Assembly: GCA_965220165.1 (NCBI GenBank)
Contig: CBDCPJ010000053.1
Span: 7,143 to 71,142, forward strand
Length of the DNA: 64,000 nt
Direction of reading: 5' to 3'
From: Spirochaetia bacterium
GTDB lineage: Bacteria; Spirochaetota; Spirochaetia; G963692905
The translations under genes were made by a program, and so were the position numbers. The notes under the pieces are model-generated. The model saw nothing but the letters and a program-made list of their open reading frames with translations, was not told the DNA's origin and did not search any database. Positions 6,398-54,790 of the stretch are shown here, piece after piece (the stretch's first letter is position 1; every line of letters starts with the position of its first letter).

Positions 6398-6570
6398 CTC
6401 CCCCCTCGCTCCATAGCGCCTCCGAGCCGATCAAAGATCGGCTCGGACCGCGTCCGCCGAATCGGGCTCCACTCGCGCTCCGCCCTGTTGGCCGCTGGCG
6501 CTATTCCGCTACCCCCCTCTGCGGGCGTCGCCTCTCCAATTGCGAGAGACCGGCGCCGCTCAATCGCGCC
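6398..6570. repeat. partial copy (GC-rich module only) of the dispersed ~300-bp repeat family
   Basis: ctcgctccatagcgcc...gctattccgctacccccc aligns with full copies at 36129, 37911, 44824. Central hairpin ccgagccgatc-aaa-gatcggctcgg. Confidence 0.6.
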
Positions 6571-6659: not shown

Positions 6660-7853
6660 CTAAACGCGCTGATATATCGGCAGTTCTCCCGCCAACGGAC
6701 GTATGTAATCAACGCATGCCTGCGTTACCGATATGCCGTCGCTCCCGATAAAATGGTCGGGGAGCGGTTTGGTATTATTTGCGACTTCGCGGAGCGGCAC
6801 CGTTCGGTACTCGACGCGATAGGGGCGCTGGTCGACTCGCTCTATCGACACCATCACACCGCTTACGTTTTCAAGCGCCAATTTCGCGGCTTGTTCTCCG
6901 CACGCGAACGCCTCTTCGCGATCTATTTGGCTGACTCGGTCGTCGGCGCACATCATCAGCGATTCTGGTACTTGGAATTCACCGCGAAAGCCGGTTTGCC
7001 GATGGATGTGGCTATGGAGAGCGATAGCGGCGCTTGCCCCGCTCATCGCGCCGAACTCCATATTGCCGAATCGATCGCGATCGCCGCTGGAAGATACCGG
7101 CGCGCCGTTGTCCCATAGAGCCCCTTCGCCGACCACAGCCGAGCACCAGCCGTATCGCTCGATTGCCTGTTGTACATCGTCGCAAAACGTTTTCCTCGAT
7201 ATCGGGCGTTCCGGCAACCATACAATATGTGGGGGATCACGAGGCTCTTTTTTCGACAGCGCCGCCGCCGCAGCCAGCCATCCGGTGTCGCGCCCCACCG
7301 TCTGATATATGCTGTATTTGTCCACTCGTCGCATATCTTCCGCGAGCCGCCCAGCCTGTTGGATAGAAAGCGCGACATAACGAGCCGCCGACCCGTATCC
7401 CGGCGTATGATCGGTGCCGTAGAGATCGTTGTCTACCGTTTTTGGCACGCCGATGCCGCATAGCGCATGTCCGGCGTCGCGACAGTATGCCTCCACGCGA
7501 TGGATGGTATCCATAGTGTCGTTTCCCCCGATAAGCACCATGGCCGATATGTTCAGGTCGTTCAGAATGCTGGCTATCTTCGGGATGTCGTTGTCTTGTA
7601 GCTTATAGCGGCATGACCCAAGCGCGGACGAGGGAGTGTTCGCGAGGCAACGGAGCGAATCTTCGGAGAGATTGGTAAGATCGGCAAGCTCGCCTTTCAT
7701 GAATCCTTCAATGCCGCCGCGCATCCCATAAATTGTGTTATATTTTCCGCTTTTTTGCGCGGCGCTAATAGCTCCGGCCAAGCTGGAGTTAATAACGGCG
7801 GTTACTCCCCCAGATTGTCCGATGAGCATATTATTTTGCGAAGATGATTTCAT
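6660..7853 (-). CDS. pfk: 6-phosphofructokinase, pyrophosphate-dependent type
   Basis: N-terminal GGVTAVINSS and GGIEGF, MGR, PKTVDND motifs of PFK-A family. Long form typical of PPi-PFK. Confidence 0.8.
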   Translation of the reverse strand: MKSSSQNNMLIGQSGGVTAVINSSLAGAISAAQKSGKYNTIYGMRGGIEGFMKGELADLTNLSEDSLRCLANTPSSALGSCRYKLQDNDIPKIASILNDLNISAMVLIGGNDTMDTIHRVEAYCRDAGHALCGIGVPKTVDNDLYGTDHTPGYGSAARYVALSIQQAGRLAEDMRRVDKYSIYQTVGRDTGWLAAAAALSKKEPRDPPHIVWLPERPISRKTFCDDVQQAIERYGWCSAVVGEGALWDNGAPVSSSGDRDRFGNMEFGAMSGASAAIALHSHIHRQTGFRGEFQVPESLMMCADDRVSQIDREEAFACGEQAAKLALENVSGVMVSIERVDQRPYRVEYRTVPLREVANNTKPLPDHFIGSDGISVTQACVDYIRPLAGELPIYQRV

Positions 7854-8807: not shown

Positions 8808-9642
8808 TACTCAGCAACACAATCATTACTGAAACGGCGCTGCCAAATCCATACTTATAGTATTTAAATGTATTAATATACATATAGATAGCGATGACTT
8901 CAGTGTAGTGCGCAGGTCCGCCGCCGGTCATGGTGAATATGAGGTCGAAGCTTTTTAAGCTTCCGGCGATTGCAAATACCGCCGTGGTAAAGAGAATATT
9001 CAGCATAGAGGGCATTATCACTCGATAGAGAATTTGATGTTCCCTCGCCCCGTCGATAATAGCGGCCTCGATAATCGACGGAGAAATTTTCTGAAGGTTG
9101 GCGATAAATATTACCATGTAGATGCCGGTATAGTACCACATAATGACAAATAATACGGGGAATATGGCAAACGTCCTATTTTCGAATATGCTGACAACAA
9201 ATCTTGGGTCATCGATCAATGTTCGAATAAGCTGAGTATATAACCCTCCCGGAGAAAAGATAAAATTCCAAAGGCTGGCTACGACTACGGCGGAAATAGT
9301 AATAGGAAGGAATATCATCGCTTCGAACATTTTTCCGCCCCATACCATGCGTCGATAGATGATATAGGCTAATATAAATCCTAAAGGGATCTGGCCAAAT
9401 ATCGATACAGCGACAATAAGAAGATTATTTCGAAGCCCATGCAAAAATACCGGGTCGCCTAGCATGGCGGTGTAGTGCTTCAGTCCAACCCATTGCGGAG
9501 TTCCTATTCCCGCCCATTCGGTAAAGCTGATCACAAAGCTCGATAATATCGGGAAAATGATCACAGATGAGTAGATAATTACAGCGGGCAACACAAAAAT
9601 TAGGTAGCTCGCAATTTTTCCTTTTCGTATGCGAAGACTCAT
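8746..9642 (-). CDS. carbohydrate ABC transporter permease (MalF/UgpA-like)
   Basis: TM permease with EAAIIDGA motif. Operon with SBP at 9726-11039. Confidence 0.75.
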   Translation of the reverse strand: MSLRIRKGKIASYLIFVLPAVIIYSSVIIFPILSSFVISFTEWAGIGTPQWVGLKHYTAMLGDPVFLHGLRNNLLIVAVSIFGQIPLGFILAYIIYRRMVWGGKMFEAMIFLPITISAVVVASLWNFIFSPGGLYTQLIRTLIDDPRFVVSIFENRTFAIFPVLFVIMWYYTGIYMVIFIANLQKISPSIIEAAIIDGAREHQILYRVIMPSMLNILFTTAVFAIAGSLKSFDLIFTMTGGGPAHYTEVIAIYMYINTFKYYKYGFGSAVSVMIVLLSIGLIVFLRRIFRIFEKKYAI

Positions 9643-33506: not shown

Positions 33507-35738
33507 TTACCGACGATGCTCCCGCGATCGCGACGACGAAACGCGAGGCGGGCGACTCCCCCCGCCCCCGCCCCCGCGGCGAGGAGGTCGACTATCCCGC
33601 GACTGCCGATCGTATGGGCGTCCGCGGTTTTCGGTGGGGCGCTGATTGCCGGTATCGCCGGTATCGTCGTCATCGAGGAGAAGGCCTAAATTGACCCGCC
33701 CCATTTTATCGATTTCGATAATTTGCACATCGAGCACCTGATTAAGCCGCAAAAGATCACCCACCGATTCCAGTCTATTTTTGGACATCTTTGATATGTG
33801 GCATAGCCCTTCTTTGCTGGGGAGAAATTCTATAAACGCGCCAAAATCGACAATTCGCTTAACGGTACCAGAGTAGATTTTGCCTATTTCAGGCTCTTCG
33901 AGCAACTTCTCAAATTCCGCCCGCGCATTTTCGCCATTCTGTTTGTTTTTGCAATAGATGGTAACGAGCCCGGAATCATCAATATTTGTCTCGACGGAAA
34001 AACGCTCGTTGATCCCTTTGATCGTCTTTCCGCCCGCCCCTATAAGCATACCGATAAATTCAGGATTAATCTCGAATTTAATGATTCGCGGAGCATATTC
34101 AGAAAGCTCGGCTTGCGGTTTTTCGATGGCTTGGCCCATAACGGATAGGATATGCATACGACCCTTGCGAGCCTGTTCCAGCGCCTTTTTGAGCACATTC
34201 GCGTCGACATTTTTGATCTTGATATCCATCTGGAACGCGGTGATGCCCTCTTTGGTGCCCGCCACCTTGAAATCCATATCGCCGAAGTGATCCTCCTCGC
34301 CGAGTATGTCGCTGAGGACGATTACGTTTTCGCCCTCTTGCACCAGCCCCATTGCGATTCCCGCAACGGGTTGCTCGATAGGAATGCCGCCGTGCATAAG
34401 CGACAGACTCCCTCCGCATACCGTAGCCATAGACGAGGAGCCATTTGACTCCAATACCTCAGAGACAAGGCGAATAGTGTAGGGAAATTGCTCCCTATCC
34501 GGCAACACCGCGTCTAAAGCCCGATACGCCAAATTGCCATGCCCTATCTCTCGTCGTCCGGTAGCGAGCCGCCCCGTTTCGCCCACCGAGTAGGGAGGGA
34601 AGTTATAGTGGAGCATAAATGGAGACGAGCGGCGGTCGCCCTCGATATCGTCTAAAATCTGTTCGTCGTAGACCGAACCCAGTGTGGTGATGGCCAGCGC
34701 CTGCGTTTCGCCTCGGGTAAAAAGCGCCGACCCGTGCGCGCGATCGAGTATGCCGACCTCGCATTCGATGGGGCGAATATCCTCCGGCTTTCGTCCGTCC
34801 GACCGTAGATTGTTTTCGACAATGGAGCGACGAAGGATATCCTGCTCCAGCTCGTCGGCGATCGCGGCAAAGTACTGCTCGCGATCCTCAGGTATTCGCT
34901 CCCCAAATTGCTTTCGCGTCTCGGCGATGATATCGTTGATTGCCGCGCGACGGATCATCTTCCCCTTTACAAAGCAGGCTCGCTCCATTTTTGGACGCAA
35001 CGCCTCGACGATCTCGTCATGCGCCTCGAGACGATACTCATCGACCACCAGCGGCAACATCGGAGTCGCGACACGCTCCCGAAGCTCCCGCTGCGCCTCG
35101 CACAATTTGGCGATCGGTTGCCGAGCGAGTTCGATCGCCTCCGAAAGAACATCCTCCGAAATCTGATTGGCGCCGCCTTCCACCATAGTGATCCCATCGA
35201 TCGTCCCCGCGACAATGATATCGAGATCGCTTACCTTTGCCTGCTCCAGATTTGGATTGATGATATATTTGCCATCCACATATCCCACACGAACCGCACC
35301 AATTGGCCCGTCGAACGGAATACCCGATATCGAAACCGCCGCCGACGCCGCATTCATCGCCACTACATCGGTAGGCTGAATGCGATCCGCGGACATAACC
35401 GTAGGAATAACCTGGATATCGCGCTTGAACGCCTTAGAAAATAGCGGGCGAATCGGGCGATCGATAAGCCGAGAAACCAGAATCTCTCTGTCCTTCGGAC
35501 GAGCCTCGCGCTTAAGAAACCCGCCGGGGATTTTGCCCGCCGCATAATATTTCTCGTTGTATTCCACATGGAGAGGAATGAAATCGAGCGACTCATCAGC
35601 CTTATCCCCGCAACACACGGTGGCGAGCACCGCAACACCGCCGCAACGGGCAAATATCGAACCATTGGCCTGCTTCGCCATGCGTCCGGTCTGCATGACG
35701 ATCTCCCCGCTTCCAAACGGGATTGTAATCTCTGTCAC
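33507..35738 (-). CDS. pnp: polynucleotide phosphorylase
   Basis: Two RNase PH domains, KH and S1 regions. 743 aa with basic R/G tail. Confidence 0.9.
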   Translation of the reverse strand: MTEITIPFGSGEIVMQTGRMAKQANGSIFARCGGVAVLATVCCGDKADESLDFIPLHVEYNEKYYAAGKIPGGFLKREARPKDREILVSRLIDRPIRPLFSKAFKRDIQVIPTVMSADRIQPTDVVAMNAASAAVSISGIPFDGPIGAVRVGYVDGKYIINPNLEQAKVSDLDIIVAGTIDGITMVEGGANQISEDVLSEAIELARQPIAKLCEAQRELRERVATPMLPLVVDEYRLEAHDEIVEALRPKMERACFVKGKMIRRAAINDIIAETRKQFGERIPEDREQYFAAIADELEQDILRRSIVENNLRSDGRKPEDIRPIECEVGILDRAHGSALFTRGETQALAITTLGSVYDEQILDDIEGDRRSSPFMLHYNFPPYSVGETGRLATGRREIGHGNLAYRALDAVLPDREQFPYTIRLVSEVLESNGSSSMATVCGGSLSLMHGGIPIEQPVAGIAMGLVQEGENVIVLSDILGEEDHFGDMDFKVAGTKEGITAFQMDIKIKNVDANVLKKALEQARKGRMHILSVMGQAIEKPQAELSEYAPRIIKFEINPEFIGMLIGAGGKTIKGINERFSVETNIDDSGLVTIYCKNKQNGENARAEFEKLLEEPEIGKIYSGTVKRIVDFGAFIEFLPSKEGLCHISKMSKNRLESVGDLLRLNQVLDVQIIEIDKMGRVNLGLLLDDDDTGDTGNQRPTENRGRPYDRQSRDSRPPRRGGGGGGSRPPRVSSSRSREHRR

Positions 35739-35740
35739 GG

Positions 35741-36010
35741 CTATTTCCGGAGATTCAACTGACGTAGCACCGATCGATATCGTTCCATATCGTTATTTTG
35801 TAAATATCGAAGCAATCGCCGCCGTTTGCCCACCATCTTGAGCAAGCCCCGCCGCGAGCTATGGTCTTTCGAATGCATCTTAAAATGGTCGGTAAGATAC
35901 CGAATTCGTGTGGTCAACAGGGCTATCTGCACCTCTGTTTTCCCGCTATCTTTGGCAGTTACGCCAAACTGTTTAATAATCGACTGCGTGTCGATCACAC
36001 TACTTGACAT
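35741..36010 (-). CDS. rpsO: 30S ribosomal protein S15
   Basis: 89 aa. [12 protein letters not shown]-like motif. Classic pnp-rpsO pair. Confidence 0.9.
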
Positions 36011-36128
36011 GGTATATACAGTCTCCTTTTATGTGTCACTACGGATATACAAAATATAATAAATCAAAAACCGCATTTATGCAAGGGCATATTTTCAATT
36101 AAAATAATAAGAAGGGGAAATACAAGAA

Positions 36129-36425
36129 GGGGGAAGCCCCCTACGCTCCATAGCGGCTCCGCGTCTCGCAAAGCTCGACGCGGACCGCGTCCGTCTGATC
36201 GGGCTCCGCTCGCGCTCCGCCCTGACAGACGCTGCCGGCTATTGCGCTACCCCCGGGCAACTCTTCAACCGGCCACAAGCCTCCCGCTCCATGACGGGCC
36301 AGCTCCGCGCGAATAGTAGTCGTAGACGATATCGGTATAATTTCACAATAACCTCTTGACATTTATTGAAAAATTGTTAATCACAATGTGAGATAATTTC
36401 TGACTATATTTAAAATGAGGAATAT
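36129..36425. repeat. full copy R1 of ~297-bp composite repeat (GC-rich palindromic module + AT-rich promoter/SD module)
   Basis: Near-identical to 37911-38206 and 44824-45120. Starts with GGGGGAAGCCCCC hairpin. Ends ...TTGACA...TGtGAGATAAT...AAAATGAGGAATAT. Confidence 0.85.
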
Positions 36426-36427
36426 GG

Positions 36428-37789
36428 GTGCAAATGGATGTGAATGATATTGGGTTATACAGTTGGCGGAAGTTCTTTAGAGGATTGGGCAAAAAGCTAT
36501 GTGAGATTGGCGACCAAAATAATCGAAATAATCGAAATGACAAGATGTGCCGGTTAGCGAAGGATATTTTTGGAGATGATAAAGCCAGCGATCCTGTTTC
36601 GTTTGTTTGTCGGTGCTCTCGGAATAAAGATAAAAACACATGGAAAAAAATCACATGGAAAGGTAGCCGAAAAATATGGGTTGCTGTTTGCAGATATCAA
36701 GGATCATAGCTATCCTGTTGCAACAAACGATAAGTATGCCAAGTGTGATGCTAACGAATACAATGCTCTCTGGGAGATATTTGTAGCGGCATACAAAGCG
36801 AAGAAAATCGGTGGATTCGATGTCGATAACGCGCTTCGATTAACCGCCTCGTCGCTAGAGCGCTGTCGATTAAAGAGATCAGCGTTCCAAAGCTTACGCA
36901 TGTGCTTTTTTTGATCAATCCCGATGTTTTTGTCCCCATAGACAAGCACACATGCATTCCGCTCACTGCGATCTATAGCGATAAAGGAAACACAAACAAA
37001 ATTTTGACGAGCATAAAAAAAGGCACGTATAAATATGTTGATGCGGCGAGGGAGTTGTCCGACTGTTTTCCCAAATGTAAGCCATACGAAATATCACTTT
37101 TCTGTCGATTAGCGGCATATTATGTAGATTCTAGAAGCCTGATGGTTAATGCAAGAGATGGGATCAAACAATTAGTGGGCGAGGATTTAGTGGGCGAGGA
37201 TTTTGGGCAGGGATTTTGAGCTGGCTGATGAGGTGAGGTTGGTTTCAGATAAACCGGAAGGCGACGAGGACTCAAAAATGTGGGAATTCAGAGAAAATAA
37301 CCACGTTCGGCTAGGCTTGCTAATAGACGACGAAAGCAATGGTAACCGCGATAACACCACTACTTATTATCGGGATTATGCGAAGGTTAAGCCTGGCTGG
37401 TTCATGATTGCTATCAGTGGGCAATCTGTTTGTATGTTGGGATTGGTGGTACAAAGCTCAGCGTATGGAAAGAATCTGGAGGAATTTAAAAAGGATCAGT
37501 ATCCTATTCATGTAGTCTGGATGAATTGCGAAAAACCTCATAACGTGGATGGAGGCAAGAAGCCTTCCCTACATCGATATAACAGCTCATGGAAGATGGA
37601 GCCCGACGTAGAACAAAATTTTCCCAAATCGTATAGGATTATCAAAGCTATACAAGCCGGGCACCGGTAAAACATATCTTGCAAAAGAAGTTGCAGCTCT
37701 GATAAATATGAATGTGCAGTTCATCCGTCATACGACTATACCGATTTTGTCGAGGGTTTGCGGCCGGTAAATGAGGATAGCGACGCTTG
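36428..37789 (+). pseudogene. McrB-like AAA+ GTPase (5-methylcytosine restriction subunit B family), copy 1, frameshifted and truncated
   Basis: Fragments in three frames. Ends with Walker A KPGTGKTYLAKEVAA and, after repairing 1-nt shift, QFHPSYDYTDFVEGLRPV (McrB signature). Truncated at duplication junction 37789. Confidence 0.6.
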
Positions 37790-37910
37790 ACATGGTATAT
37801 ACAGTCTCCTTTTGTATGTCACTACGGATATACAAAATATAATAAATCAAAAACCGCATTTATGCAAGGGCATATTTTCAATTAAATAATAAGAAGGGGA
37901 AATACAAGAA

Positions 37911-38206
37911 GGGGGAAGCCCCCTACGCTCCATAGCGGCTCCGCGTCTCGCAAAGCTCGACGCGGACCGCGTCCGTCTGATCGGGCTCCGCTCGCGCTCC
38001 GCCCTGACAGACGCTGCCGGCTATTGCGCTACCCCCGGGCAACTCTTCAACCGGCCACAAGCCTCCCGCTCCATGACGGGCCAGCTCCGCGCGAATAGTA
38101 GTTAGACGATATCGGTATAATTTCACAATAACCTCTTGACATTTATTGAAAAATTGTTAATCACAATGTGAGATAATTTCTGACTATATTTAAAAGGAGG
38201 AATATA
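37911..38206. repeat. full copy R2 of composite repeat
   Basis: ~99% identical to R1 (3-bp deletion). Ends AAAAGGAGGAATATA. Confidence 0.85.
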
Positions 38207-38263
38207 GGTGCAAATGATGAGAATGATATTGGGTTATACAGTTGGCGGAAGTTCTTTAGAGGA

Positions 38264-39452
38264 TTGGGCGAAAAGCTATGTGAGATTGACGACCAAAATA
38301 ATCGAAATGATCGAGATGACAAGATGCGCCGGTTAGCGAATGATATTTTTGAAGATGATAAAGCCAGCGATCCTGTTTCGTTTGTTTGTCGGTGCTCTCG
38401 GAATAAAAAACACATGGGAAGGGTAGCCGAAAAATATGGGTTGCTGTTTGCAGATATCAAGGATCATAGCTATCCTGTTGCAACAGACGATAAGTATGCC
38501 AAGTGTGATGCTAGCGAACACGATGCTCTCTGGATGATATTTGTAGTGGCATACAACGCGAAGAAAATCGGTAGATATATCGATTTCGATCACGCGTTTG
38601 TGACTAACCGCATCGTCGATAGAGCTCTGTCGATTAAAGAGATCAGCGTTCCAAAGCTTACGCATGCGCTTTTTTTGATCAATCCCGATGTTTTTGTCCC
38701 CATAGACAAGCACACATGCATTCCGCTCACTGCGAACTATAGAGATAAAGGAGACACAGACAAAATTTTGACGAGCATAAAAAGCGGCACGTATAAATAT
38801 GTTGATGCGGCGAGGGATTTGTCCAACTGTTTTCCCAAACGTAAGCCATACGAAATATCACTTTTCTGTCGATTAGCGTCACCACAACTACTTGCCGGGA
38901 TTATGTGGAGGTTAAGCCTGGATGGTTCATGATTGCTATCAGTGGGCAATCTTTTTGTAAGTTGGGATTGGTGGTACAAAGCTCAGCGGATGGAAAGAAT
39001 CTGGAGGAATTTAAAAAGGATCAGTATCCTATTCATGTAGTCTGGATGAATTTCGAAAAACCTCATAACGTGGATGGAGGCAAGAAGCCTTCCCTACATC
39101 GATATAACAGCTCATGGAAGATGGAGCCCGACGTAGAACAAAATTTTCCCAAATCGTATAGGATTATCAAAGCTATACAAGCCGGGCACCGGTAAAACAT
39201 ATCTTGCAAAAGAAGTTGCAGCTCTGATAAATATGAATTTGTGCAGTTCCATCCGTCATACGACTATGATGAAACGCAAAAGATATATCCCGATTTTTAC
39301 CACAAAGATCAGCCGATAGTATTGTCAGGATACCTATGAGCAAAGACTATAATGATTTTCAGCAGTTCTGTGAGAAAATGGACGAGGCAGAGAAGAAGTT
39401 TATTGAGGAAATAGGCAAGACTGATTGTACATCTGGCAAAAATATTGAGTAA
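38264..39452 (+). pseudogene. McrB-like AAA+ GTPase, copy 2, decayed (N-terminal frameshift, ~250-bp internal deletion, AAA+ region scrambled)
   Basis: ~93% nt identity to copy 1. Retains KPGTGKTYLAKEVAA and FVQFHPSYDY. No McrC partner downstream. Confidence 0.55.
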
Positions 39453-39469
39453 CAAGCGCTTGTTACAAA

Positions 39470-40186
39470 TTAAATACTCGCATTGTCTGCATTACTCCGG
39501 CCTGTTTTCAAGCAATCGCAATCTAAACCCTTCAAAATATTTCTAACAGATTCAATTTTAACTAGTTCGATAACAAAGTAGCGTAGGTTCTGCGGCGCGC
39601 CATGCGCGCGAGACCATACTATTTCATTATAGTCTATTTCTAGTAGTTCGCAGAACTCCTGCCCGGTAAGTACCTCTTCATAGTTTATTTTTTTCTTAAA
39701 ACCGTTCACAATAGCGTTTCGGTCATCCTGATTGAAACAGCAAAAATGCGCTTTTACTTTGTATGGCACATTACGCGCGGTCTCTTCGATAAAAGATTTC
39801 ATAGCATTTTTTTCGGCATCTGACTTCTTGGTATCAAACGAATCTCCGTCTTTCAGTTCTACCAGATGACAATATTGTTCGCCCATTCTGTGTTTGAAGA
39901 TCATAAAATCCGGTTCGAATCCTTTTTTTGTACTTAGGGCATTGCATTTTTTGACTTTTTGCTTATCTGCTACTACAACCCCTTCCGGCATGCTTTGCAT
40001 CGAAAGAAAATCGTCCAAGTCTTCTATCAACGTGACTTTATTTTTAATAATGCGTTCCAATTCGGTGCCCGCTGATATCATGGCTGAATGGGCACGGCTT
40101 ACCAAACACCCTACTTCATCGTCTCCGAATAGGCGACTGTATCCGCTTCCCTTCGATCGTCCCTTCGCGTTTTCTATAAGCGCCAT
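39470..40186 (-). CDS. putative Type II restriction endonuclease (PD-ExK fold)
   Basis: FEPDFMIFKH...HLVELKDG gives PD...ExK spacing. Start codon adjacent to (abuts) methyltransferase stop (TAGATG). Confidence 0.5.
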   Translation of the reverse strand: MALIENAKGRSKGSGYSRLFGDDEVGCLVSRAHSAMISAGTELERIIKNKVTLIEDLDDFLSMQSMPEGVVVADKQKVKKCNALSTKKGFEPDFMIFKHRMGEQYCHLVELKDGDSFDTKKSDAEKNAMKSFIEETARNVPYKVKAHFCCFNQDDRNAIVNGFKKKINYEEVLTGQEFCELLEIDYNEIVWSRAHGAPQNLRYFVIELVKIESVRNILKGLDCDCLKTGRSNADNASI

Positions 40187-40984
40187 CTAGCCGTTCAGGT
40201 CGCAGCCCAGAAAGTCGCGTTTCTGTAGCTTGCAGGCCTCCATCACCGAAAAACTTCCAGCGGCCGGGTCGATCACAATATCGCCCTCGTTGGATACGGC
40301 GGCAATCAATGTGCCTTGCAGGTTGATAGGCTTCTTATGCGTGTGTCCGCTTCTTTGTACCTTCTCCACCAATACATCGGGAATGTCGTGAATCTTCCAG
40401 ACCCCTTTTGCCCTTAGCGGCTTTTTTTGCAACACTACGACATGCTCGCTGGATCGACGCGTCCGATACCCCATGCCGATTCTGTCTTTATGCCACGTAA
40501 CCATATCCACGACGCTCAGATGCGTTTCGTTCAGCCACTCCGAAAATCCGGTGCAAAGGTGAAATTTGTCCATCCAGAGAAAAAGATGGCCGCTTGGTAT
40601 CAGGACATTGGATATTCTCCGTATAAATTGGCATATTTTTTCCTCGTCCATCTGCTCCAGCGCAAAACGTTGTTGCCCGCGATTTTTGCCCTCGTTGCCA
40701 TACCCCAATTTATCCAGCACGCCTCGATATTGCGGATCAAAAAAAGCGACGGGAATGCTGTCTGCGGGCAATTTGCCAAGGAATTTCAGTCCGTCCATTT
40801 TCAGGCGCGTATTGAGGCGCAATCCTCGCGGAATTGCTATTTTGGGAGATTGAACTTCCCGATTGTTGCCAAACACAGTATTCTGCGTCGTATCGGGGAT
40901 AGGATCGGCATTTTTTATCTTTCGAGCCGGGCTGCTCATAAATTTGCTCCCGAACAGGGCAAGCAATTGCATTTGGCGCCGCAT
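40187..40984 (-). CDS. beta-class DNA methyltransferase (N6-adenine or N4-cytosine), motif IV variant DPQY
   Basis: ...LPADSIPVAFFDPQY (motif IV) precedes HTHKKPINLQGTLIAAVSNEGDIVIDPAAGSFSVMEACKLQKRDFLGCDLN (motif I, FxGxG-type). Order IV->I indicates beta class. Confidence 0.75.
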   Translation of the reverse strand: MRRQMQLLALFGSKFMSSPARKIKNADPIPDTTQNTVFGNNREVQSPKIAIPRGLRLNTRLKMDGLKFLGKLPADSIPVAFFDPQYRGVLDKLGYGNEGKNRGQQRFALEQMDEEKICQFIRRISNVLIPSGHLFLWMDKFHLCTGFSEWLNETHLSVVDMVTWHKDRIGMGYRTRRSSEHVVVLQKKPLRAKGVWKIHDIPDVLVEKVQRSGHTHKKPINLQGTLIAAVSNEGDIVIDPAAGSFSVMEACKLQKRDFLGCDLNG

Positions 40985-41065
40985 AGCGCTTGGGCTTGCG
41001 GAATATCCATTCTATAAAGGTTCATAGCGCTACGTGTTGTCTCCAATTCATCAGGCATTATTGAG

Positions 41066-41127
41066 ATTATATTGAACACAATAATTGTTTTCATCAAGTA
41101 CTATTATTATATTTAACACAATAATCG
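41066..41127. promoter_or_regulatory. pair of 22-bp direct repeats, each with internal dyad TATTG-N4-CAATA, upstream of R-M operon
   Basis: ATTATATTGAACACAATAATTG at 41066 and ATTATATTTAACACAATAATCG at 41106. 40-bp phasing. 80-140 nt upstream of methyltransferase start. Confidence 0.4.
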
Positions 41128-41158
41128 CCCGTTTTTACAATTCAGCAACTATTTCTTT

Positions 41159-43003
41159 TCATAGACAATCCCTAATCAGCGAACGATGCCACTTTAAGAG
41201 CATATCATGCGATCGAGCGGCCACCGACGCGTCGGGATGCTCTACATCCACGATAATGCGCAAGAGCGGCTCGGTGCCCGACTGACGCATCCAGAGCGAC
41301 GCGGCGGGCACCCCGTCGCAGCGACTGACGACAATCTTGATGCCGCCGCTCGATGGCGGCCGTTCCTGACCAGTGGCGACAATCTCGCGGTCGCCCGTCG
41401 AGTAGATCGCGCGGGGCGTTGAACTCGCCGCCCACAACAGCGCCGCTTGGCGGTGAAACGGTGTATCCTCGCGGCTCCACCGCTCCCGAAAAAGCTCCCG
41501 ATATCTTCGGGTAAACCCTCCCCAATCCTCTACGGAAAGCTCCATTTTGGCGCGAGAATCGCCGGTTTCGGTCGTCGCAAAGCTCGGCAACGAAGCGATA
41601 AGAAGCCCTATCGACCGATCCGCCTCTATGCGGCCGCCCCCGCGCCGCAACCGCGAGCGATCGATCCAGCGATCAAACAGCGCAATGCCCCGCTCGTCGT
41701 CGGCAAATAAGAGCGACAGCAGGCTCCCGATAGCCAGCAGCGGGTCTCGGACGGTCGACGGCGACATAATTGCCCCGCCATTCGATCCTTCGCCCGCAAT
41801 CGGCACATGGTAGCCCTTTTCAGCCAGCCGCTCGGCCAACGAAACGACATTCGCCTCGCCCACCTCGGCGCGATAGACCGCCGCCCCAAAACTGGCCGCG
41901 ATGCGGTCGATGGCGAACGACGTGGGCGCGTTGATCGCGACGGCGATCGGGCGTTGGCGACCGCTTTTCGCCGTCTGGCGAGCGAGCGTCGCGATAACCG
42001 CCACAGCAAACATCTGCTGCGCGGTCAACACCTTGCTCTCCGCGCCGTCCCAATAGCAAATATTGCCCCGATCGCCATCGCAGTCGGGCATATACCCAAA
42101 CGCGACATCCCGCGCGCCGGAGCCCTGCAGCGAAAGCTCCGCTCGGCATGCCTCCAACGAGTCGCCCTCCGGAACGATGGCATGCGCGATCTCGTCGGCA
42201 TTGAGTTCCGCCAGTTGGACGCCGGAGCCGCGCAACATTGCCCGATCGATGGAGGTCGCCCGCGCGCTTCCGTTGTAATCCATCACCACGCGGCACCCTC
42301 GCTCGCGGATACGCCGCGCGATCGTGTCGCCAAAGTCCATCGACCCGTCGCCCATCGACCCGTCGAGCCGGCCGCTCTCCCGCATATCCCCCGCCGCCCC
42401 CACATCTCCAGAGATAATCTTCCGACACTGCGTCGCGTAGCATCGACGAGCGACCGCCCGCGCATCGGGAGTCGCGCTATAGACAGCCTCTATTCGCGAC
42501 GGATCGACCGATAAACATTTCCGCTCGATCGACGCCCATCGTTCGGGCATAGCGCGCAACGCGGCGAAACGGGAAAGCGTCGCCTCCGCGCGATCAGGAG
42601 CAAGTATACGGCCGTCGCCCATCGCCAACTTGATCCCATTGTACCCAATTGGATTATGGCTTGCGGTAATGCACAGCGCGGCCGCTATCTGGCTATCAAC
42701 GCGCGCATAGCAGAGGAGCTCGGTAATCGGCGCCACATCAAGGTAGCGAACCGAATGGCCGCGAGCAAGGAGCGCCGCGATTATTGCCCGCGCCAACGGC
42801 TCGCCGGTGGGGCGACTATCGCGCGCCAACGCGATTGCCCCGACACCCGTCCCCCCGGAATCCTCGCCGTCTAGGTAGTCGCAGAACGCCCAAACGACCA
42901 GCGTAAATAATGTAAGACGCGGCGGCGCCACAAGAGGCGATCTACTCTCGGGATTATCATCTCCCGCTGCTATCGCACGGTATCCAGATATTGAAGCAAT
43001 CAT
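41159..43003 (-). CDS. phosphoglucomutase/phosphomannomutase family protein
   Basis: Active-site CITASHNPIGYNGIKLA (TASHNP phosphoserine loop). 614 aa. Confidence 0.8.
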   Translation of the reverse strand: MIASISGYRAIAAGDDNPESRSPLVAPPRLTLFTLVVWAFCDYLDGEDSGGTGVGAIALARDSRPTGEPLARAIIAALLARGHSVRYLDVAPITELLCYARVDSQIAAALCITASHNPIGYNGIKLAMGDGRILAPDRAEATLSRFAALRAMPERWASIERKCLSVDPSRIEAVYSATPDARAVARRCYATQCRKIISGDVGAAGDMRESGRLDGSMGDGSMDFGDTIARRIRERGCRVVMDYNGSARATSIDRAMLRGSGVQLAELNADEIAHAIVPEGDSLEACRAELSLQGSGARDVAFGYMPDCDGDRGNICYWDGAESKVLTAQQMFAVAVIATLARQTAKSGRQRPIAVAINAPTSFAIDRIAASFGAAVYRAEVGEANVVSLAERLAEKGYHVPIAGEGSNGGAIMSPSTVRDPLLAIGSLLSLLFADDERGIALFDRWIDRSRLRRGGGRIEADRSIGLLIASLPSFATTETGDSRAKMELSVEDWGGFTRRYRELFRERWSREDTPFHRQAALLWAASSTPRAIYSTGDREIVATGQERPPSSGGIKIVVSRCDGVPAASLWMRQSGTEPLLRIIVDVEHPDASVAARSHDMLLKWHRSLIRDCL

Positions 43004-43119
43004 ATAGTATCTATCGGAAAAATGCGTTCTTTTTTCGAATCGCGACGCATGAATTTAATATCTTCTTGCCTTATATAGATAACAATAAAGCGAAGACATG
43101 CCGACATTCAACAGAATAC

Positions 43120-44298
43120 ATGAAGATAGCGAGATACATACAGAAAATTATAAACATTGTCATTCGATGGGTGCGGATATCGCAATATGCCCGCCCCACG
43201 CTCTTTTTCCTCTTTTTTCTCGTTATCTGCGCCGCCCTCGCGGTGATGTTCGAAATGAACACCAACGGACAGTTCAACAACATTATCGACGGGTTTTGGT
43301 GGGTTATTATCACCTTTAGCACCACCGGTTATGGAGACAAGGTGCCGGTAACAATTGGCGGTCGCATCATCGCCATTTTGACGATATTGATCGGAATCAC
43401 CGGCATGAGTCTGTTATCGGGCGGATTGGCGTCATGGTTGGTAGAACGAAATACTAGGGCAAGGAGAGGTCTTGTGGATTACAGCTATCTTAAAAATCAT
43501 ATTATTGTCTGCGGATGGAAACCCGATATGGCCGACATACTATTGGGGATGATCGCGTCCGCCGACGATCTGTCGGGCGAAAATATTGTGATTATATCCA
43601 ATGTTCCCAGCGAGCGCATCGACGCGCTGCATGACAGAGACGAACTGCGCGCGGTGCGATTTGTGCACGGCGACTATTTTTCCGAAACGCCATTGTTGCG
43701 CGCGGGAGTCAAGAAGGCCAAAAAGGTGATGATTCTCGCCGACTCGCTAGAGAGCCATGGAGTTACGGAGGTCGATTCAAAAACCGTATTGGCGGTGTTG
43801 ACGATCAAATCGATATCTCGCGAAGTCTACGTTACCGCCGAACTTCTTGATAAAAAGTATGAAAGCTACCTCAAACAGGCCGCTTGCGACGAAATTCTTT
43901 TCAGTCAAGAAATGTCGCGCCACCTTTTGGCCAGCGCCTCGCATACCAATGGACTAAGCCACATATTTTACGCGTTGCTCTCTCATAACGAGCATCAAGT
44001 TCGCCTCACAACCGTTGAAATCCCCGCGATGTTTATCGAGCGAACCTACACCGACTTTAAGGAACACGTAGAAAAGCAGGAGCGCTGTCAGTTGATCGGG
44101 GTATTAGAGAATGCCGGATCGCCGGCGCGAATGAAAATAGACGCGCTTCGTTCGGCGCAAAAAACTTCGGATGTCTCTCGATTGATCAACAACCTCCAGC
44201 GAGTCAAAGGGCTAGAGGTAAACAGGCCGGTATTCACGCCGCCCAGCGACTATAAAATCAACGCAAACTCCCTCGGCATTTTAGTGGAGCATATTTAG
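43120..44298 (+). CDS. 2-TM potassium channel with C-terminal RCK (TrkA-N) domain
   Basis: Selectivity filter TTGYGD between two TM helices. Rossmann-like HIIVCGWKPDMADILL (RCK). Track ORF from 42991; start more likely Met at 43120. Confidence 0.75.
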   Translation: MKIARYIQKIINIVIRWVRISQYARPTLFFLFFLVICAALAVMFEMNTNGQFNNIIDGFWWVIITFSTTGYGDKVPVTIGGRIIAILTILIGITGMSLLSGGLASWLVERNTRARRGLVDYSYLKNHIIVCGWKPDMADILLGMIASADDLSGENIVIISNVPSERIDALHDRDELRAVRFVHGDYFSETPLLRAGVKKAKKVMILADSLESHGVTEVDSKTVLAVLTIKSISREVYVTAELLDKKYESYLKQAACDEILFSQEMSRHLLASASHTNGLSHIFYALLSHNEHQVRLTTVEIPAMFIERTYTDFKEHVEKQERCQLIGVLENAGSPARMKIDALRSAQKTSDVSRLINNLQRVKGLEVNRPVFTPPSDYKINANSLGILVEHI

Positions 44299-44299
44299 T

Positions 44300-44794
44300 A
44301 TGAGCAGAGCGGAGATATTTCAAAAGCTAGAGCAGATCCACATCTTTGAGAAGCTCTGCTCAAGCTCTGAAGACGCGGACAGGTTGATAAACATTATCCG
44401 CCGCGTAAAATATCAAAAAAATAGGATAGTGATTCATGAAGGCGAATTGGGAAACGATATGTTCATCGTCTATTCCGGATCGGTGCAGATACGAAAACGC
44501 ACGCGAGCGGGCGACAGCTACACGGTGGTCAACCTCTCCGCCGATCAAAATGTTTTCTTTGGCGAACTGGCGCTGATCGACGACGACAAACGATCGGCGA
44601 CCGTCCGCACCTTGAGCGACTGCGAATTTTTAGTGCTCGATAAGGCCGATTTCATCAAACTGGGCAACGACTATCCACACATCGCCCTGCCCATCACCCG
44701 CGCGATCTCGCAAATTCTCGCCGGCCGATTGCGACGCACGACAGCCGATATGCTTACCATTTTCGACGCGCTGGTCAACGAGCTATCGGGATAA
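44300..44794 (+). CDS. stand-alone cyclic-nucleotide-binding (CNB) domain protein
   Basis: FGELALIDDDKRSATVRT...DF motifs of CAP-family cNMP-binding fold. 164 aa, no output domain. Start 1 nt after channel stop. Confidence 0.75.
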   Translation: MSRAEIFQKLEQIHIFEKLCSSSEDADRLINIIRRVKYQKNRIVIHEGELGNDMFIVYSGSVQIRKRTRAGDSYTVVNLSADQNVFFGELALIDDDKRSATVRTLSDCEFLVLDKADFIKLGNDYPHIALPITRAISQILAGRLRRTTADMLTIFDALVNELSG

Positions 44795-44823
44795 TCCCCC
44801 ACAATACAATACAATATCATAAG

Positions 44824-45120
44824 GGGGAAGCCCCCTACGCTCCATAGCGGCTCCGCGTCTCGCAAAGCTCGACGCGGACCGCGTCCGTCTGATCGGGCTC
44901 CGCTCGCGCTCCGCCCTGACAGACGCTGCCGGCTATTGCGCTACCCCCGGGCAACTCTTCAACCGGCCACAAGCCTCCCGCTCCATGACGGGCCAGCTCC
45001 GCGCGAATAGTAGTCGTAGACGATATCGGTATAATTTCACAATAACCTCTTGACATTTATTGAAAAATTGTTAATCATAATGTGAGATAATTTCTGATTA
45101 TATTTAAAAGGAGGAATATA
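44824..45120. repeat. full copy R3 of composite repeat, abutting oppA start codon
   Basis: Identical architecture to R1/R2. Ends AAAAGGAGGAATATA immediately before ATG 45121. Confidence 0.85.
45050..45114 (+). promoter_or_regulatory. repeat-borne promoter-like module and Shine-Dalgarno for oppA
   Basis: TTGACA 45050-55. Extended -10-like TGaGATAAT 45083-91. AAGGAGG 45108-14, 6 nt before ATG. Confidence 0.45.
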
Positions 45121-46704
45121 ATGGCGCATAAATTTATCTTATTATTTGTCATGGCTTTTGTAGCCATTTCAGGCATCTCATTTGCTGGCGGCGAAGCCGA
45201 ACTCGGCGACGAAGCCGTAACGTTTCGAATCGGAAACGGCGCGGAGCCAGAATCGCTCGACCCTCATCTGGTTTCTGGCGTTCCGGAGCATCGTATTTTT
45301 TATTCGTTATTCGAAGGGTTGGTCACCAACGATCCGCAAACCAACGAGGCTGTCCCCGGCGTAGCGGAACGATGGGATATTAGCGACGACAGAACCGTAT
45401 ATACCTTTTATCTTCGTCGAACGACTTGGAGCGATGGCGTCCCTATTACCGCGCAGACGGTGTATGATTCATGGATTCGCGTTCTTGATCCCGAAACCGC
45501 TTCTCCGTACGCATGGTTTCCGGGTCTATTTATCAGCGGAGCTGATGAATACAACGGCGGCGAAGCCGGCCCAGATGTCGTAGGCATTAGAGTGGTAGAC
45601 GACTATACGTTCGAGGTCCAGCTAGCCGGACCGTTGCCATACGCGCTTGGCGCGCTGACCCACTATTCATTTGGCATCGTTCCCCTGCACGCTATCGAAG
45701 AGCATGGCACGGAATGGACGTTGGCGGAAAATTTTGTGGGAAATGGCCCGTTTATGCTTGAGGAATGGTTGCCGCAGCAACAACTCTCTGTCGTTCCCAA
45801 CCCATTATATTGGGACGCCGATGCCGTAAGCCTAGACCGCGTAGTCTATTTACCCATCGAGGATAATAACACAGGATACAATATGTTCCTGAACGGCGAA
45901 CTGGATTGGCAAACGACAGTGCCTAACGATCAGGTCGAACAGGCCCGTCTCGAACAGGGCTACAATCGCAACGCGCAGTTGGCCACGTACTATTATCACC
46001 TAAATAACAAGCGTCCTCCGTTGGACGATGAGCGTGTAAGAAAGGCTCTGGCTATCTCTATTGATAGAAACGAGCTGGTCGAAACGGTTACTCGGGCGGG
46101 GCAGATACCCGCGTATGGCATTGTTCCCGCGCTATCCGGATACGAGGCGACGGTAGCTTTCCAAGAAGATACCGATCAGGCGAGGCGATTACTAGAAGAG
46201 GCAGGCTTTCCGGGCGGAGAAGGTTTTCCGGAATTGCAAATTCTCTACAATACCAGCGAAGGGCATAAAAAGATCGCCGAGTATATTCAGCAACAATGGA
46301 AGGAGATCCTTGGAATCGACGTTTCGCTCATCAACCAAGAGTGGAAAACATATTTGAGCACGACGCGAGAGCATGATTTTGATATTGCTCGCGCCGGTTG
46401 GGTTGGCGACTATCAGGATCCAAATACCTTCCTTGATCTCTTTATTACCGATGGCGGTCTCAATAATAGCGACTACAGCAACCCGAGATACGACGAATTG
46501 ATTGAGCGAGCGTCTTCAATGTCGGCTGGAAGCCAACGATTCAATGTGTTGCGAGAGGCGGAAGAGCTTTTTATAGGCGAAGATCATGGAATTATACCGA
46601 TCTACTACTATGTCACGCTCAATATGATTGATACTAATAAGTGGGGTGGTTGGTACAAAAACGTACAGGATTTTCATCCTACCAAAGACATTTATAGGAA
46701 GTAG
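45121..46704 (+). CDS. oppA: oligopeptide ABC transporter substrate-binding protein (family 5)
   Basis: Signal peptide. 527 aa. Family-5 SBP composition. Followed by oppBCDF. Confidence 0.85.
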   Translation: MAHKFILLFVMAFVAISGISFAGGEAELGDEAVTFRIGNGAEPESLDPHLVSGVPEHRIFYSLFEGLVTNDPQTNEAVPGVAERWDISDDRTVYTFYLRRTTWSDGVPITAQTVYDSWIRVLDPETASPYAWFPGLFISGADEYNGGEAGPDVVGIRVVDDYTFEVQLAGPLPYALGALTHYSFGIVPLHAIEEHGTEWTLAENFVGNGPFMLEEWLPQQQLSVVPNPLYWDADAVSLDRVVYLPIEDNNTGYNMFLNGELDWQTTVPNDQVEQARLEQGYNRNAQLATYYYHLNNKRPPLDDERVRKALAISIDRNELVETVTRAGQIPAYGIVPALSGYEATVAFQEDTDQARRLLEEAGFPGGEGFPELQILYNTSEGHKKIAEYIQQQWKEILGIDVSLINQEWKTYLSTTREHDFDIARAGWVGDYQDPNTFLDLFITDGGLNNSDYSNPRYDELIERASSMSAGSQRFNVLREAEELFIGEDHGIIPIYYYVTLNMIDTNKWGGWYKNVQDFHPTKDIYRK

Positions 46705-46720
46705 ATAATACTTCCACACA

Positions 46721-47650
46721 ATGACGAAGTATATTATCCAGCGTGCCGCGGGGATTATCCCCGCCGTGCTGGCTATCGTCACCATAAGCTTTTTCATCAT
46801 TCGGATCGCTCCCGGCGGTCCGTTTGATGTAGAGCGTAAATTGCCCGAGCAGGTCTTGCGCAATATCGAGGCAAAGTACCACTTAGATGAACCGCTGGTT
46901 CAGCAATACTTTCGATACATTGGCAATTTGCTTCGCGGCGATCTCGGTCCCTCCTATCGATATCATGATCATGATGTCAATTTTTTTATATTTAGCAGTC
47001 TGCCGCACTCTATCCTGCTTGGAGGAGTAGCGTTGATCTTAGCGTTGCTCGCGGGCATCGTTGTCGGTATCATATCGGCGTTACGGCAAAATAGGTGGAT
47101 CGATTACAGCTCGATGTTTGTCGCGGTGTTTGGCATATCCGTCCCCGCATTTGTCATTGGGCCTGTATTGGTCTATTGGTTTTCCATTCAATTAAAAATT
47201 TTTCCTACGTCCGGATGGATCAACGTAGGCGGGGGAATTCGCAGTCTTATATTGCCGGTAATTACGTTGTCGTTATTTTATTTTGCCACAATCGCTCGGC
47301 TCAGTCGCGCCGGAATTATCGAAGTATTGCGTAGCGACTATGTTCGCACCGCGCGAGCCAAAGGATTGCCGACCGGATTGATTGTGGTCAAACATGTGCT
47401 TAAAGGAGCGTTGTTGCCGGTGGTAAGCTATCTTGGCCCCGCGATGGCCGCCATCGTCACCGGATCGGTGGTAGTAGAGACGATCTTTCTTATTCCCGGA
47501 TTGGGGCGATTCTTTGTGCAATCGGCATTTAACCGCGACTATACGTTGCTTTTGGGTTCGGTAATCGTATATTCGGTGTTATTGATAATTCTTAATTTCA
47601 TTGTCGATATTCTATATGGGTTGCTTGATCCCCGCATATCCTACAGTTAA
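46721..47650 (+). CDS. oppB: oligopeptide ABC permease
   Basis: 6-TM BPD-transporter permease with EAA loop region. Confidence 0.85.
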   Translation: MTKYIIQRAAGIIPAVLAIVTISFFIIRIAPGGPFDVERKLPEQVLRNIEAKYHLDEPLVQQYFRYIGNLLRGDLGPSYRYHDHDVNFFIFSSLPHSILLGGVALILALLAGIVVGIISALRQNRWIDYSSMFVAVFGISVPAFVIGPVLVYWFSIQLKIFPTSGWINVGGGIRSLILPVITLSLFYFATIARLSRAGIIEVLRSDYVRTARAKGLPTGLIVVKHVLKGALLPVVSYLGPAMAAIVTGSVVVETIFLIPGLGRFFVQSAFNRDYTLLLGSVIVYSVLLIILNFIVDILYGLLDPRISYS

Positions 47651-47664
47651 GGGAGTATAATATT

Positions 47665-48777
47665 ATGAACACTATACAGACCGAACAAAACGAACAGGGC
47701 CATAAAAATCTTGCGCTGGTCGACAACGAACAGCTCCAAACTGTTCGAAGGATTAGCCTCGGGCAAGACGCCTGGAGGCGACTAAAGAAAAATAGGCTTG
47801 CTTTGGCGGGTCTTGTCATCGTAATCGCATATTCATTGATATGCCTCTTGGCGCCGATTCTTCCCTTCTATTCCTTTTCCTATCAAGTGCCCGAACATAA
47901 TTTTCTGCCGCCGTCGCTCACAAAAACCGGAGGCGAGCTATGGCTGGAGCGAGAGACAAATTATACCTCGCAACTGGCAGCGGTCGAAGATCGCGCGATA
48001 TCTTCGGAAGAGCGCTCTGAACTGGACGATATACGACGACGCGTTTCCGAAGGAGAAACGCATGTCTTTGAGGGCAAAGAGATAAGCCTGCATGATCGAA
48101 AATATCTATTGGGCACCGATTACCTAGGACGAGATATGTTGGCGCGTATCGTTTACGGCGGACAGATTTCAATTTCGATCGGCCTCCTTGGGGCGATTAC
48201 CAGCGTTATTATTGGAATCATCGTTGGGGCTATATCGGGATATGTGGGGGGCAAAGTAGATTATATCATCACGCGATTTATAGACATCCTCTATTGTCTT
48301 CCCTATATGTTGCTGGTGATTATTCTTATGGCGTTGTTTGGACAAAATACTATCAACCTTTTTATCGGGCTCTCGATGATTAGCTGGTTAACGGTTGCTC
48401 GAGTAGTTCGCGGGCAAATTATTTCATTAAAAAATTCGATATTTGTCGAAGCCTCTCGTTCGGTGGGTTCCAGCGTTATGAGAATAATTTTTCGTCATCT
48501 CGTGCCCAATACGTTGGGCGTTATCATTGTATTTGCTAGTTTGCGCGTTCCCGCTTTTATACTGTTGGAGGCGTTTCTCTCATTTCTAGGATTGGGCGTT
48601 TCGGCTCCTCTCGCATCGTGGGGCTCGTTGCTTCGCGACGCTACCGATGGGCTTTCGCTCTATCCATGGCGGCTATTTTGGCCGGCGATTGTTATGAGTG
48701 TTTTCCTCCTTTCGATGAATTTCCTTGGCGATGGATTGCGCGACGCATTTGATCCCCAAAGCAAAAATCTTCTGTAA
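47665..48777 (+). CDS. oppC: oligopeptide ABC permease
   Basis: OppC/DppC-like, N-terminal extension. 370 aa. Confidence 0.85.
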   Translation: MNTIQTEQNEQGHKNLALVDNEQLQTVRRISLGQDAWRRLKKNRLALAGLVIVIAYSLICLLAPILPFYSFSYQVPEHNFLPPSLTKTGGELWLERETNYTSQLAAVEDRAISSEERSELDDIRRRVSEGETHVFEGKEISLHDRKYLLGTDYLGRDMLARIVYGGQISISIGLLGAITSVIIGIIVGAISGYVGGKVDYIITRFIDILYCLPYMLLVIILMALFGQNTINLFIGLSMISWLTVARVVRGQIISLKNSIFVEASRSVGSSVMRIIFRHLVPNTLGVIIVFASLRVPAFILLEAFLSFLGLGVSAPLASWGSLLRDATDGLSLYPWRLFWPAIVMSVFLLSMNFLGDGLRDAFDPQSKNLL

Positions 48778-54699: not shown

Positions 54700-54790
54700 T
54701 GGCGCCCGCAGAGGGGGGTAGCGGAATAGCGCCTGCGAGCCGAGCTTTGATCGGCTCGCAGGCGCTATGGAGCGAGGGGGGAGACAGCGA
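54700..54790. repeat. partial, shortened copy (reverse orientation) of GC-rich repeat module
   Basis: gaggggggtagcggaatagcgcctgcgagccga-gctttga-tcggctcgcaggcgctatggagcgaggggggag. Perfect 16-bp central stem. Mirror G6 tracts. Confidence 0.6.

Follow-up and report, generated by a model that had tools for sequence, protein, structure and literature searches.

The 64,000-nt stretch of DNA analyzed here (the window, to which all unqualified positions refer) covers positions 7,143 to 71,142 on the forward strand of contig CBDCPJ010000053.1, belonging to the Spirochaetia bacterium assembly GCA_965220165.1. Within it, rpsO and a phosphohexomutase-family gene (here called pgm) bracket an interval of about 5.1 kb, which harbors a restriction-modification (R-M) gene pair on the minus strand and two decayed mcrB-like genes on the plus strand. 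An earlier note, made from the sequence alone, had described this interval as a small defense islet, and a map of open reading frames (ORFs) together with a Pfam scan confirmed the two bracketing genes that it had named. By its contents the locus is an ordinary defense islet, in which a known Type II family is represented by an intact member and a known Type IV family, next to it, by one that is dead and duplicated.

The methyltransferase-endonuclease gene pair

The upstream gene of the pair (40187-40984, minus strand), a 265-aa ORF, encodes a beta-class N6/N4 DNA methyltransferase, as identified by the REBASE-derived PADLOC model MTase_II (PDLC03271, 7e-82) and the Pfam domain N6_N4_Mtase (PF01555, 4.3e-14). 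Motif IV, DPQY at residues 83-86, is situated N-terminal to motif I, DPAAGSFS at residues 239-246, which is the beta-class order, and the protein terminates directly after motif I. Motif order and Pfam match thus agree with the class and the DPQY motif given in the earlier note. Its description of DPQY as unusual holds in so far as the motif replaces DPPY, but the variant is not peculiar to this gene: FFDPQYRG and DPAAGSFS are invariant in the aligned family, the former in five members plus a Campylobacter plasmid homolog, and DPQY has been published for M.HhaII. A weak NCBIfam match to CcrM (2e-6) fell far under the cut-off of that model. Since every homolog begins at a position equivalent to M16 (position 40939), which has a GGGAG 8 nt to its 5' side, the true start is probably M16, giving a protein of 250 amino acids. 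Upstream, a promoter-like region (41066-41125, minus strand) was found by repeat search and promoter scan (41094-41066). It contains two 20-bp direct repeats, ATTATTGTGTT(A/C)AATATAAT, 40 bp apart and each overlapped by a TATAAT box, which may serve as an operator or as promoters in tandem. A C-protein gene is absent.

The downstream gene (39470-40186, minus strand) encodes a Type II restriction endonuclease of 238 amino acids, of the PD-(D/E)XK type and an HhaII-like family. It was matched by the likewise REBASE-derived PADLOC model REase_II (PDLC03487, 1.6e-47); Pfam, NCBIfam and PDB sequences gave no match, and cluster look-ups returned only the label 'restriction endonuclease'. The PD...ExK spacing noticed earlier, here P92-D93 and E110-L111-K112, is part of an EPD...ELK pattern that is invariant across 48 homologs. 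The structure prediction is confident and PD-(D/E)XK-like, so that both a nuclease fold, which the earlier note had wanted checked, and the catalytic residues were found. The 365 detectable homologs are mostly 220-227 amino acids long, with identities reaching as low as 35%, and compared with them the protein carries a low-confidence C-terminal extension of about 15 amino acids. Its nearest structural neighbors are EcoO109I and related Type IIP PD-(D/E)XK enzymes (PspGI, PfoI, AvaII, Cfr10I), at 10-15% identity; judged from the model, this likeness is one of fold and not of family membership. These neighbors cleave interrupted palindromes with short 5' overhangs, which is compatible with cleavage at G^ANTC.

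At the junction between the two genes (...AACGGC TAG ATG GCG...) the stop codon of the methyltransferase abuts the start codon of the nuclease, as the earlier note had it for this minus-strand operon (40984-39470), and the nuclease would thus be made from the same transcript after the methyltransferase. In every context examined, the nuclease gene lies directly 3' of an N6_N4_Mtase gene of 247-260 codons. The settings of the pair include peptide-permease genes in a Chloroflexota metagenome-assembled genome, the neighborhood of glnA, and Campylobacter conjugative plasmids. In the Chloroflexota genome (locus L086, 5249-6675; also L087 and L088) the pair is found within a peptide-permease operon, with BPD_transp_1 and OppC_N genes on either side and just ~45 nt ahead of and 10 nt behind the two genes, so that the mobile unit is essentially the two ORFs alone. 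Judged by this conservation in unrelated contexts, the pair is a mobile two-gene cassette, and the methyltransferase is not the orphan that the earlier note had considered as a possible outcome. Both ORFs are full length and keep all family-invariant residues, as would be expected of an intact HhaII-like Type IIP system.

The likeness to HhaII of Haemophilus concerns motif, architecture and size. M.HhaII (P00473) carries DPQYR in place of N/DPPY (PMC4190342). GANTC is the site that it methylates, and it has no counterpart of the C-terminal segment found in CcrM and M.HinfI (PMC7672430; PMC3973329). The latter two enzymes have DPPY and an 80-residue C-terminal segment for strand separation (PMC7672430). 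The methyltransferase of the window shares with CcrM and HinfI the N6_N4_Mtase domain and GANTC as a candidate target, but stops after motif I, as M.HhaII does. In common with HhaII it is a small beta-class adenine methylase with DPQYR rather than DPPY, and without a C-terminal segment of the CcrM/HinfI type. The HhaII genes are also arranged head-to-tail, the methyltransferase gene being first. The two systems differ in that the host is here a spirochaete and both proteins are a little larger (about 250 and 238 amino acids), the comparison being made by motif and description. The matched PADLOC profiles are 228 (methyltransferase) and 227 (nuclease) positions long, which we take to be the sizes of M.HhaII and R.HhaII, a lead and not a test. 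As to the nuclease, the part of Table 1 in the 2008 survey of Type II restriction endonucleases that holds the R.HhaII family assigns its fold by sequence analysis with reliability 2, and the entry is apparently placed in the PD-(D/E)XK section. No named HhaII or REBASE-style entry was found among the 120 best matches for either protein.

The earlier note had left the specificity open, and the target is still one reached by analogy, but with DPQYR published for M.HhaII, a GANTC enzyme, GANTC carrying N6-methyladenine (m6A) becomes the leading candidate and the likely target. The methyltransferase, being translated first, would methylate the host sites, most likely at N6 of the adenine in GANTC, and the nuclease would cleave the same sequence, most likely as G^ANTC, in incoming DNA that lacks the methylation. 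That the cassette is active at another site, with the DPQY family spanning several specificities, is a possibility to be kept seriously in mind, if the lesser one. Type II restriction endonuclease families can switch specificity at a divergence such as that seen among the nucleases here (down to 35% identity), and the resemblance to HhaII was established by motif and not by alignment. Nor is GANTC avoided in the window, with 216 occurrences observed against 224 expected under a third-order Markov model (ratio 0.96). An apparent deficit against dinucleotide shuffles (216 against 312), tried as evidence of specificity, vanishes under that model and is thus an effect of composition. On the other side, M.HhaII is the one characterized enzyme for which the searched literature notes a DPQYR motif IV, and the sites and overhangs of the structural neighbors of the nuclease match G^ANTC.

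Duplicated remains of an McrBC system

By three-frame translation of the plus strand, two mcrB pseudogenes were identified, copy 1 (36428-37785), which was also aligned to the full-length McrB proteins P0127-P0129, and copy 2 (38207-39267), which was compared with copy 1 using MAFFT. Both keep a Walker A motif (PGTGKTYLAKEVAALI) and VQFHPSYDY(TDFVEGLRP), in agreement with the two decayed McrB-like copies reported earlier. Copy 1 has an intact start codon but at least three frameshifts, is broken after 93 amino acids, and spans two N-terminal domains, DUF8425 and a beta-rich domain, followed by Walker A and the QFHPSYDYTDFVEGLRP signature, before being cut at the duplication junction. Copy 2 lacks an in-frame start codon, its DUF8425 part being one open frame, and a 239-bp deletion shifts the frame ahead of the beta-rich domain. 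Of the motifs, it keeps Walker A and QFHPSYDY. The copies end at residues ~476 and ~461, respectively, of about 700, and no Walker B, sensor or lid is left. Full-length McrB homologs match the reconstructed remnant with E-values down to 2.5e-26 over 98% of its length, and judged by these matches the remnants descend from a bona fide mcrB gene. The intact homologs consist of DUF8425, the beta-rich domain and an AAA+ module, with a McrC gene (PF10117) next to each.

The N-terminal domain had tentatively been assigned to MrcB_N/DUF3578. This found no support, as no Pfam match to that domain was seen at E<=1; the homologs are instead annotated with PF28527 (DUF8425), and residues 14-254 are all-alpha in the structure model. 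For the second domain (residues 262-375, the counterpart of the segment WFMIAISGQS...HVVWMN), the EVE/PUA-like fold suggested earlier is no more than a candidate: the domain is beta-rich in the model, at a predicted local distance difference test score (pLDDT) of only 41-67. A profile built from eight sequences of it found nothing in Pfam or among PDB sequences, and it aligns loosely with DUF8426 inserts. Some McrB proteins of the DUF8425 type (L089, 4001-6148; P0147, P0172) carry an extra DUF8426 domain inside the AAA+ module, which hints, from the alignment, that insert and beta-rich domain could be a shared reader module at differing positions. Compared with the McrB/McrC of Escherichia coli and the McrBC of Thermococcus gammatolerans, the remnant has kept the Walker A motif and the QFHPSYDYTDFVEGLRP signature, but its N-terminus is DUF8425 plus the beta-rich domain and not E. 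coli McrB-N or the YTH-like domain of T. gammatolerans, and the system of the window is dead and duplicated.

The two copies had been taken for separate remnants, but they result from one imperfect 1.78-kb tandem duplication. Each unit, as delimited by repeat search, opens with the first 8 nt of rpsO and its leader/promoter region (boundary at 36003), followed by a GC-rich repeat with a promoter and an mcrB remnant. Unit 1 (36003-37785, plus strand) extends to ...FVEGLRPVNEDSD, and unit 2 (37786-39267, plus strand) ends at ...QFHPSYDY. Copy 2 and its deletion junction also occur in an independent metagenome contig (L091, see below). The units are 94.5% identical (MAFFT), the non-coding 430 nt being ~99% and mcrB ~94.6% identical. 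The 239-bp deletion of copy 2 corresponds to 37115-37353 in copy 1, and copy 1 retains 46 nt of mcrB that are lost from copy 2. Among the codon differences (36437-37720 against 38216-39250), 38 are nonsynonymous and 3 synonymous, so that no purifying selection is seen to act on the copies; this excess, seen beside the ~99% identical non-coding part, could be due to gene conversion of the repeat part, to relaxed or diversifying selection, or to alignment-edge effects. Mutagenesis of the kind caused by diversity-generating retroelements was rejected, since the substitution spectrum is not adenine-specific. The duplicated rpsO promoter, ribosome-binding site and ATG (ATGTCAAG...), at 37786-37860 on the minus strand, are directed into mcrB copy 1 from its 3' side, and might give rise to antisense RNA as well as expression of a short ORF (MSSVAILIYRPQTLDKIGIVV).

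The sole independent contig found, L091 (9,463 bp), is 99.65% identical to window positions 38755-48208. It carries pgm, both genes of the R-M cassette, a McrC stub and mcrB copy 2 with its deletion junction, and ends inside the repeat. Of the 33 differences from the window, 24 are situated in the final 400 nt, leaving only 9 in the remaining 9 kb. In L091 positions 8940-9463 (window 38755-39270), where coverage is 3.95x, the sequence alternates in patches between the alleles of copy 1 (10 sites) and those of copy 2 (13 sites), which suggests that gene conversion has acted between the copies or that a collapsed repeat yielded a mixed consensus. On either explanation, the sample contains sequence of both kinds.

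These data also bear on whether the duplication is real. It is unlikely, in our judgement, to be an assembly artefact, i.e. a concatenation of strain variants of a single mcrB remnant or a mis-resolved repeat. Such an origin would fit with the 5.5% difference between the copies, with the mixed alleles in the last 500 nt of L091, and with the fact that the junction (37785/37786) is found in this assembly only, the one other assembly breaking inside the repeat, at 38755 within copy 2. However, at the junction mcrB codon ~476 runs into rpsO codon 3, and no lengthy common sequence exists there to lead assembly astray; the 46 nt specific to copy 1 and the deletion specific to copy 2 indicate structurally distinct loci; and from its copy-1-type alleles the second sample, too, is taken to have both sequences.

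The earlier note had found no McrC partner for the mcrB genes. No functional McrC is indeed present, but about 180 nt of McrC stubs survive behind copy 2 (39268-39446, plus strand; blastx and BLASTP), which is all that the window holds of the PF10117 partner carried by every intact relative. The last ~30 codons match residues 432-461 of the 469 in the McrC proteins of loci L003 and L002 (blastx, E=1.8e-4 and 6.7e-4, respectively; BLASTP against the L003 protein, E=7e-6). In addition, the stretch YPDFYHKDQPIVLSGYL (YPDFY...IVLSGY) following mcrB copy 2 has a weak McrC match (E=0.011) and may be the decayed PD...DAK nuclease motif of McrC. On the strength of these matches, McrC once belonged to the locus and was reduced to these stubs by deletion. 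As no Walker B, lid or nuclease is left, the remnant cannot function as McrBC. The ancestral order would have been rpsO, the repeat with its promoter, mcrB and mcrC, then the convergent nuclease and methyltransferase genes with pgm beyond. A segment of about 2 kb, from rpsO codon 3 to mcrB codon ~476, would then have been duplicated in tandem, the copies decaying independently through frameshifts and the 239-bp deletion, and a deletion of about 2 kb would have fused mcrB codon ~461 to mid-mcrC, wrecking the system.

Whether the neighboring cassette had a part in this loss is a separate question. McrB N-terminal domains differ in the mark that they read, and a conflict can be pictured in which the DUF8425/beta-rich reader would recognize the newly introduced m6A mark, destruction of McrBC then being selected and the duplicated, fast-diverging reader-domain fragments being the leftovers. 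A precedent exists in E. coli, where M.HhaII triggers Mrr, an enzyme of Type IV (PMC3973329). That the system was lost because the HhaII-type mark in GANTC made it self-toxic nevertheless appears quite improbable, an idea by analogy only.

The dispersed repeat and the genomic setting

The GC-rich element ahead of each mcrB copy belongs to a dispersed repeat of 307 nt, consisting of a GC-rich core with several hairpins and a tail with promoter-like sequence and a ribosome-binding site that ends exactly at the start codon. Apart from the copy upstream of mcrB copy 1 (36119-36425, plus strand), blastn identified copies at 37901-38206 and at 44813-45119, the latter directly upstream of an oppA-like gene, the three being 98-100% identical. 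Diverged cores occur at 6401-6516 and 54714-54780 (minus strand), with compensatory changes in a central hairpin (ccgcgtc...gacgcgg versus ccgagccgatc...gatcggctcgg). A terminator-like hairpin, AGGGGGCTTCCCCCT followed by a T-run, is found within the repeat on the minus strand (36142-36128). The GC-rich element was rejected both as a gene fragment, since comparison with related loci gave no match at protein or DNA level, and as a known RNA, there being no Rfam match and folding z-scores of just -1.3 and -2.1.

To the left, the interval is flanked by rpsO (ribosomal protein S15; 35741-36010, minus strand; Pfam Ribosomal_S15, 1.2e-33), and to the right by pgm (41159-43003, minus strand; 614 amino acids), which has the Pfam domains PGM_PMM_I, III and IV and whose NCBIfam matches were all under their cut-offs. 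The GC content is 39-49% in the interval and 55-65% in the flanks. An insertion between two backbone genes, as proposed earlier, is not demonstrable: in the nearest relatives (compared: L004 and L006) the gene order is infB-rbfA-truB-ribF-rpsO-pnp-lptF, without pgm nearby. The window retains rpsO-pnp-lptF, and infB, rbfA, truB and ribF are absent from all of its 64 kb. With ribF 5' of rpsO in the relatives and not in the window, the islet marks a synteny breakpoint at the 5' end of rpsO and not a clean insertion. Among 21 loci of related spirochaetes, none was found to have a homolog of either R-M gene within ~10 kb of rpsO-pnp.

Taken together, the interval is, with good probability, a defense islet of horizontal origin, situated 5' of rpsO at the breakpoint of a rearrangement and comprising an HhaII-family R-M cassette and the remains of McrBC. 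Its foreign origin is suggested by the low GC content and by the lack of homologs of the cassette at the related rpsO-pnp loci. The defense-gene turnover proposed in the earlier note from a Type II system beside an McrBC remnant is likewise seen in the intact cassette, the decayed mcrB genes and the low GC content. Several points nevertheless weigh against this reading. The HhaII assignment draws on the rarity of the motif, on agreement in architecture and size, and on REBASE-derived hidden Markov models that name no enzyme; GANTC is not avoided; the duplication junction is known from a single assembly; and the collections hold no close relative for a presence/absence comparison. The host is indeed without a close sequenced relative, the top identity of its polynucleotide phosphorylase (PNPase) being 67-69%, to uncultured Spirochaetaceae. 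No close relative of pgm was found in GTDB genomes or Joint Genome Institute (JGI) metagenomes, and the exact rpsO-leader pattern was absent from the JGI metagenomes.

Two further observations concern the surroundings. The PNPase has a C-terminal tail of ~55 amino acids past its S1 domain (33507-33680, minus strand), rich in Arg, Gly, Ser and Pro (...GNQRPTENRGRPYDRQSRDSRPPRRGGGGGGSRPPRVSSSRSREHRR). Window-wide, the motifs GTAC, CTAG, GGCC, CCNGG, GGNCC and TCNGA occur at 0.47-0.65 of Markov expectation, which may reflect other restriction systems of the genome.

Activity and significance of the islet

Concerning the cassette itself, there is little reason to think it inactive, whether through silence of the nuclease or because the methylase is maintained solely for an epigenetic role or for addiction. 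Its activity is a prediction, and the low-confidence C-terminal extension of the nuclease could be counted in favor of this, but both proteins are full length with every family-invariant residue and are also intact in the second strain, represented by L091. Least probable of all is a role for the mcrB fragments as expressed, stand-alone DNA-binding proteins (DUF8425/beta-rich) under diversifying selection, e.g. as sensors, decoys or regulators: the excess of nonsynonymous differences (P~0.003, where neutrality predicts 26% synonymous), the repeat with promoter and ribosome-binding site ahead of each copy, and two ORFs spanning whole domains (222 amino acids, 38264-38932, and 155 amino acids, 37203-37670) are countered by the missing in-frame start behind the ribosome-binding site of copy 2, the early break in copy 1, differences per codon position (18:19:9) that are not significantly non-uniform, mismatches that in some cases sit at indel edges, and frameshifts that are unlike between the copies, as decay predicts.

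On gene content, the R-M cassette is probably the sole working part of the islet, and the McrB-like ORFs of the window merit annotation as pseudogenes. In other respects the locus is a routine case of defense-gene gain and decay. Beyond this genome, it ties a McrB architecture known only by domains of unknown function (DUF), with DUF8425 and a beta-rich domain, to McrC-linked Type IV systems, and it provides a concrete candidate specificity, namely GANTC with m6A, for a two-gene R-M cassette with a DPQY methylase that is widespread in metagenomes.

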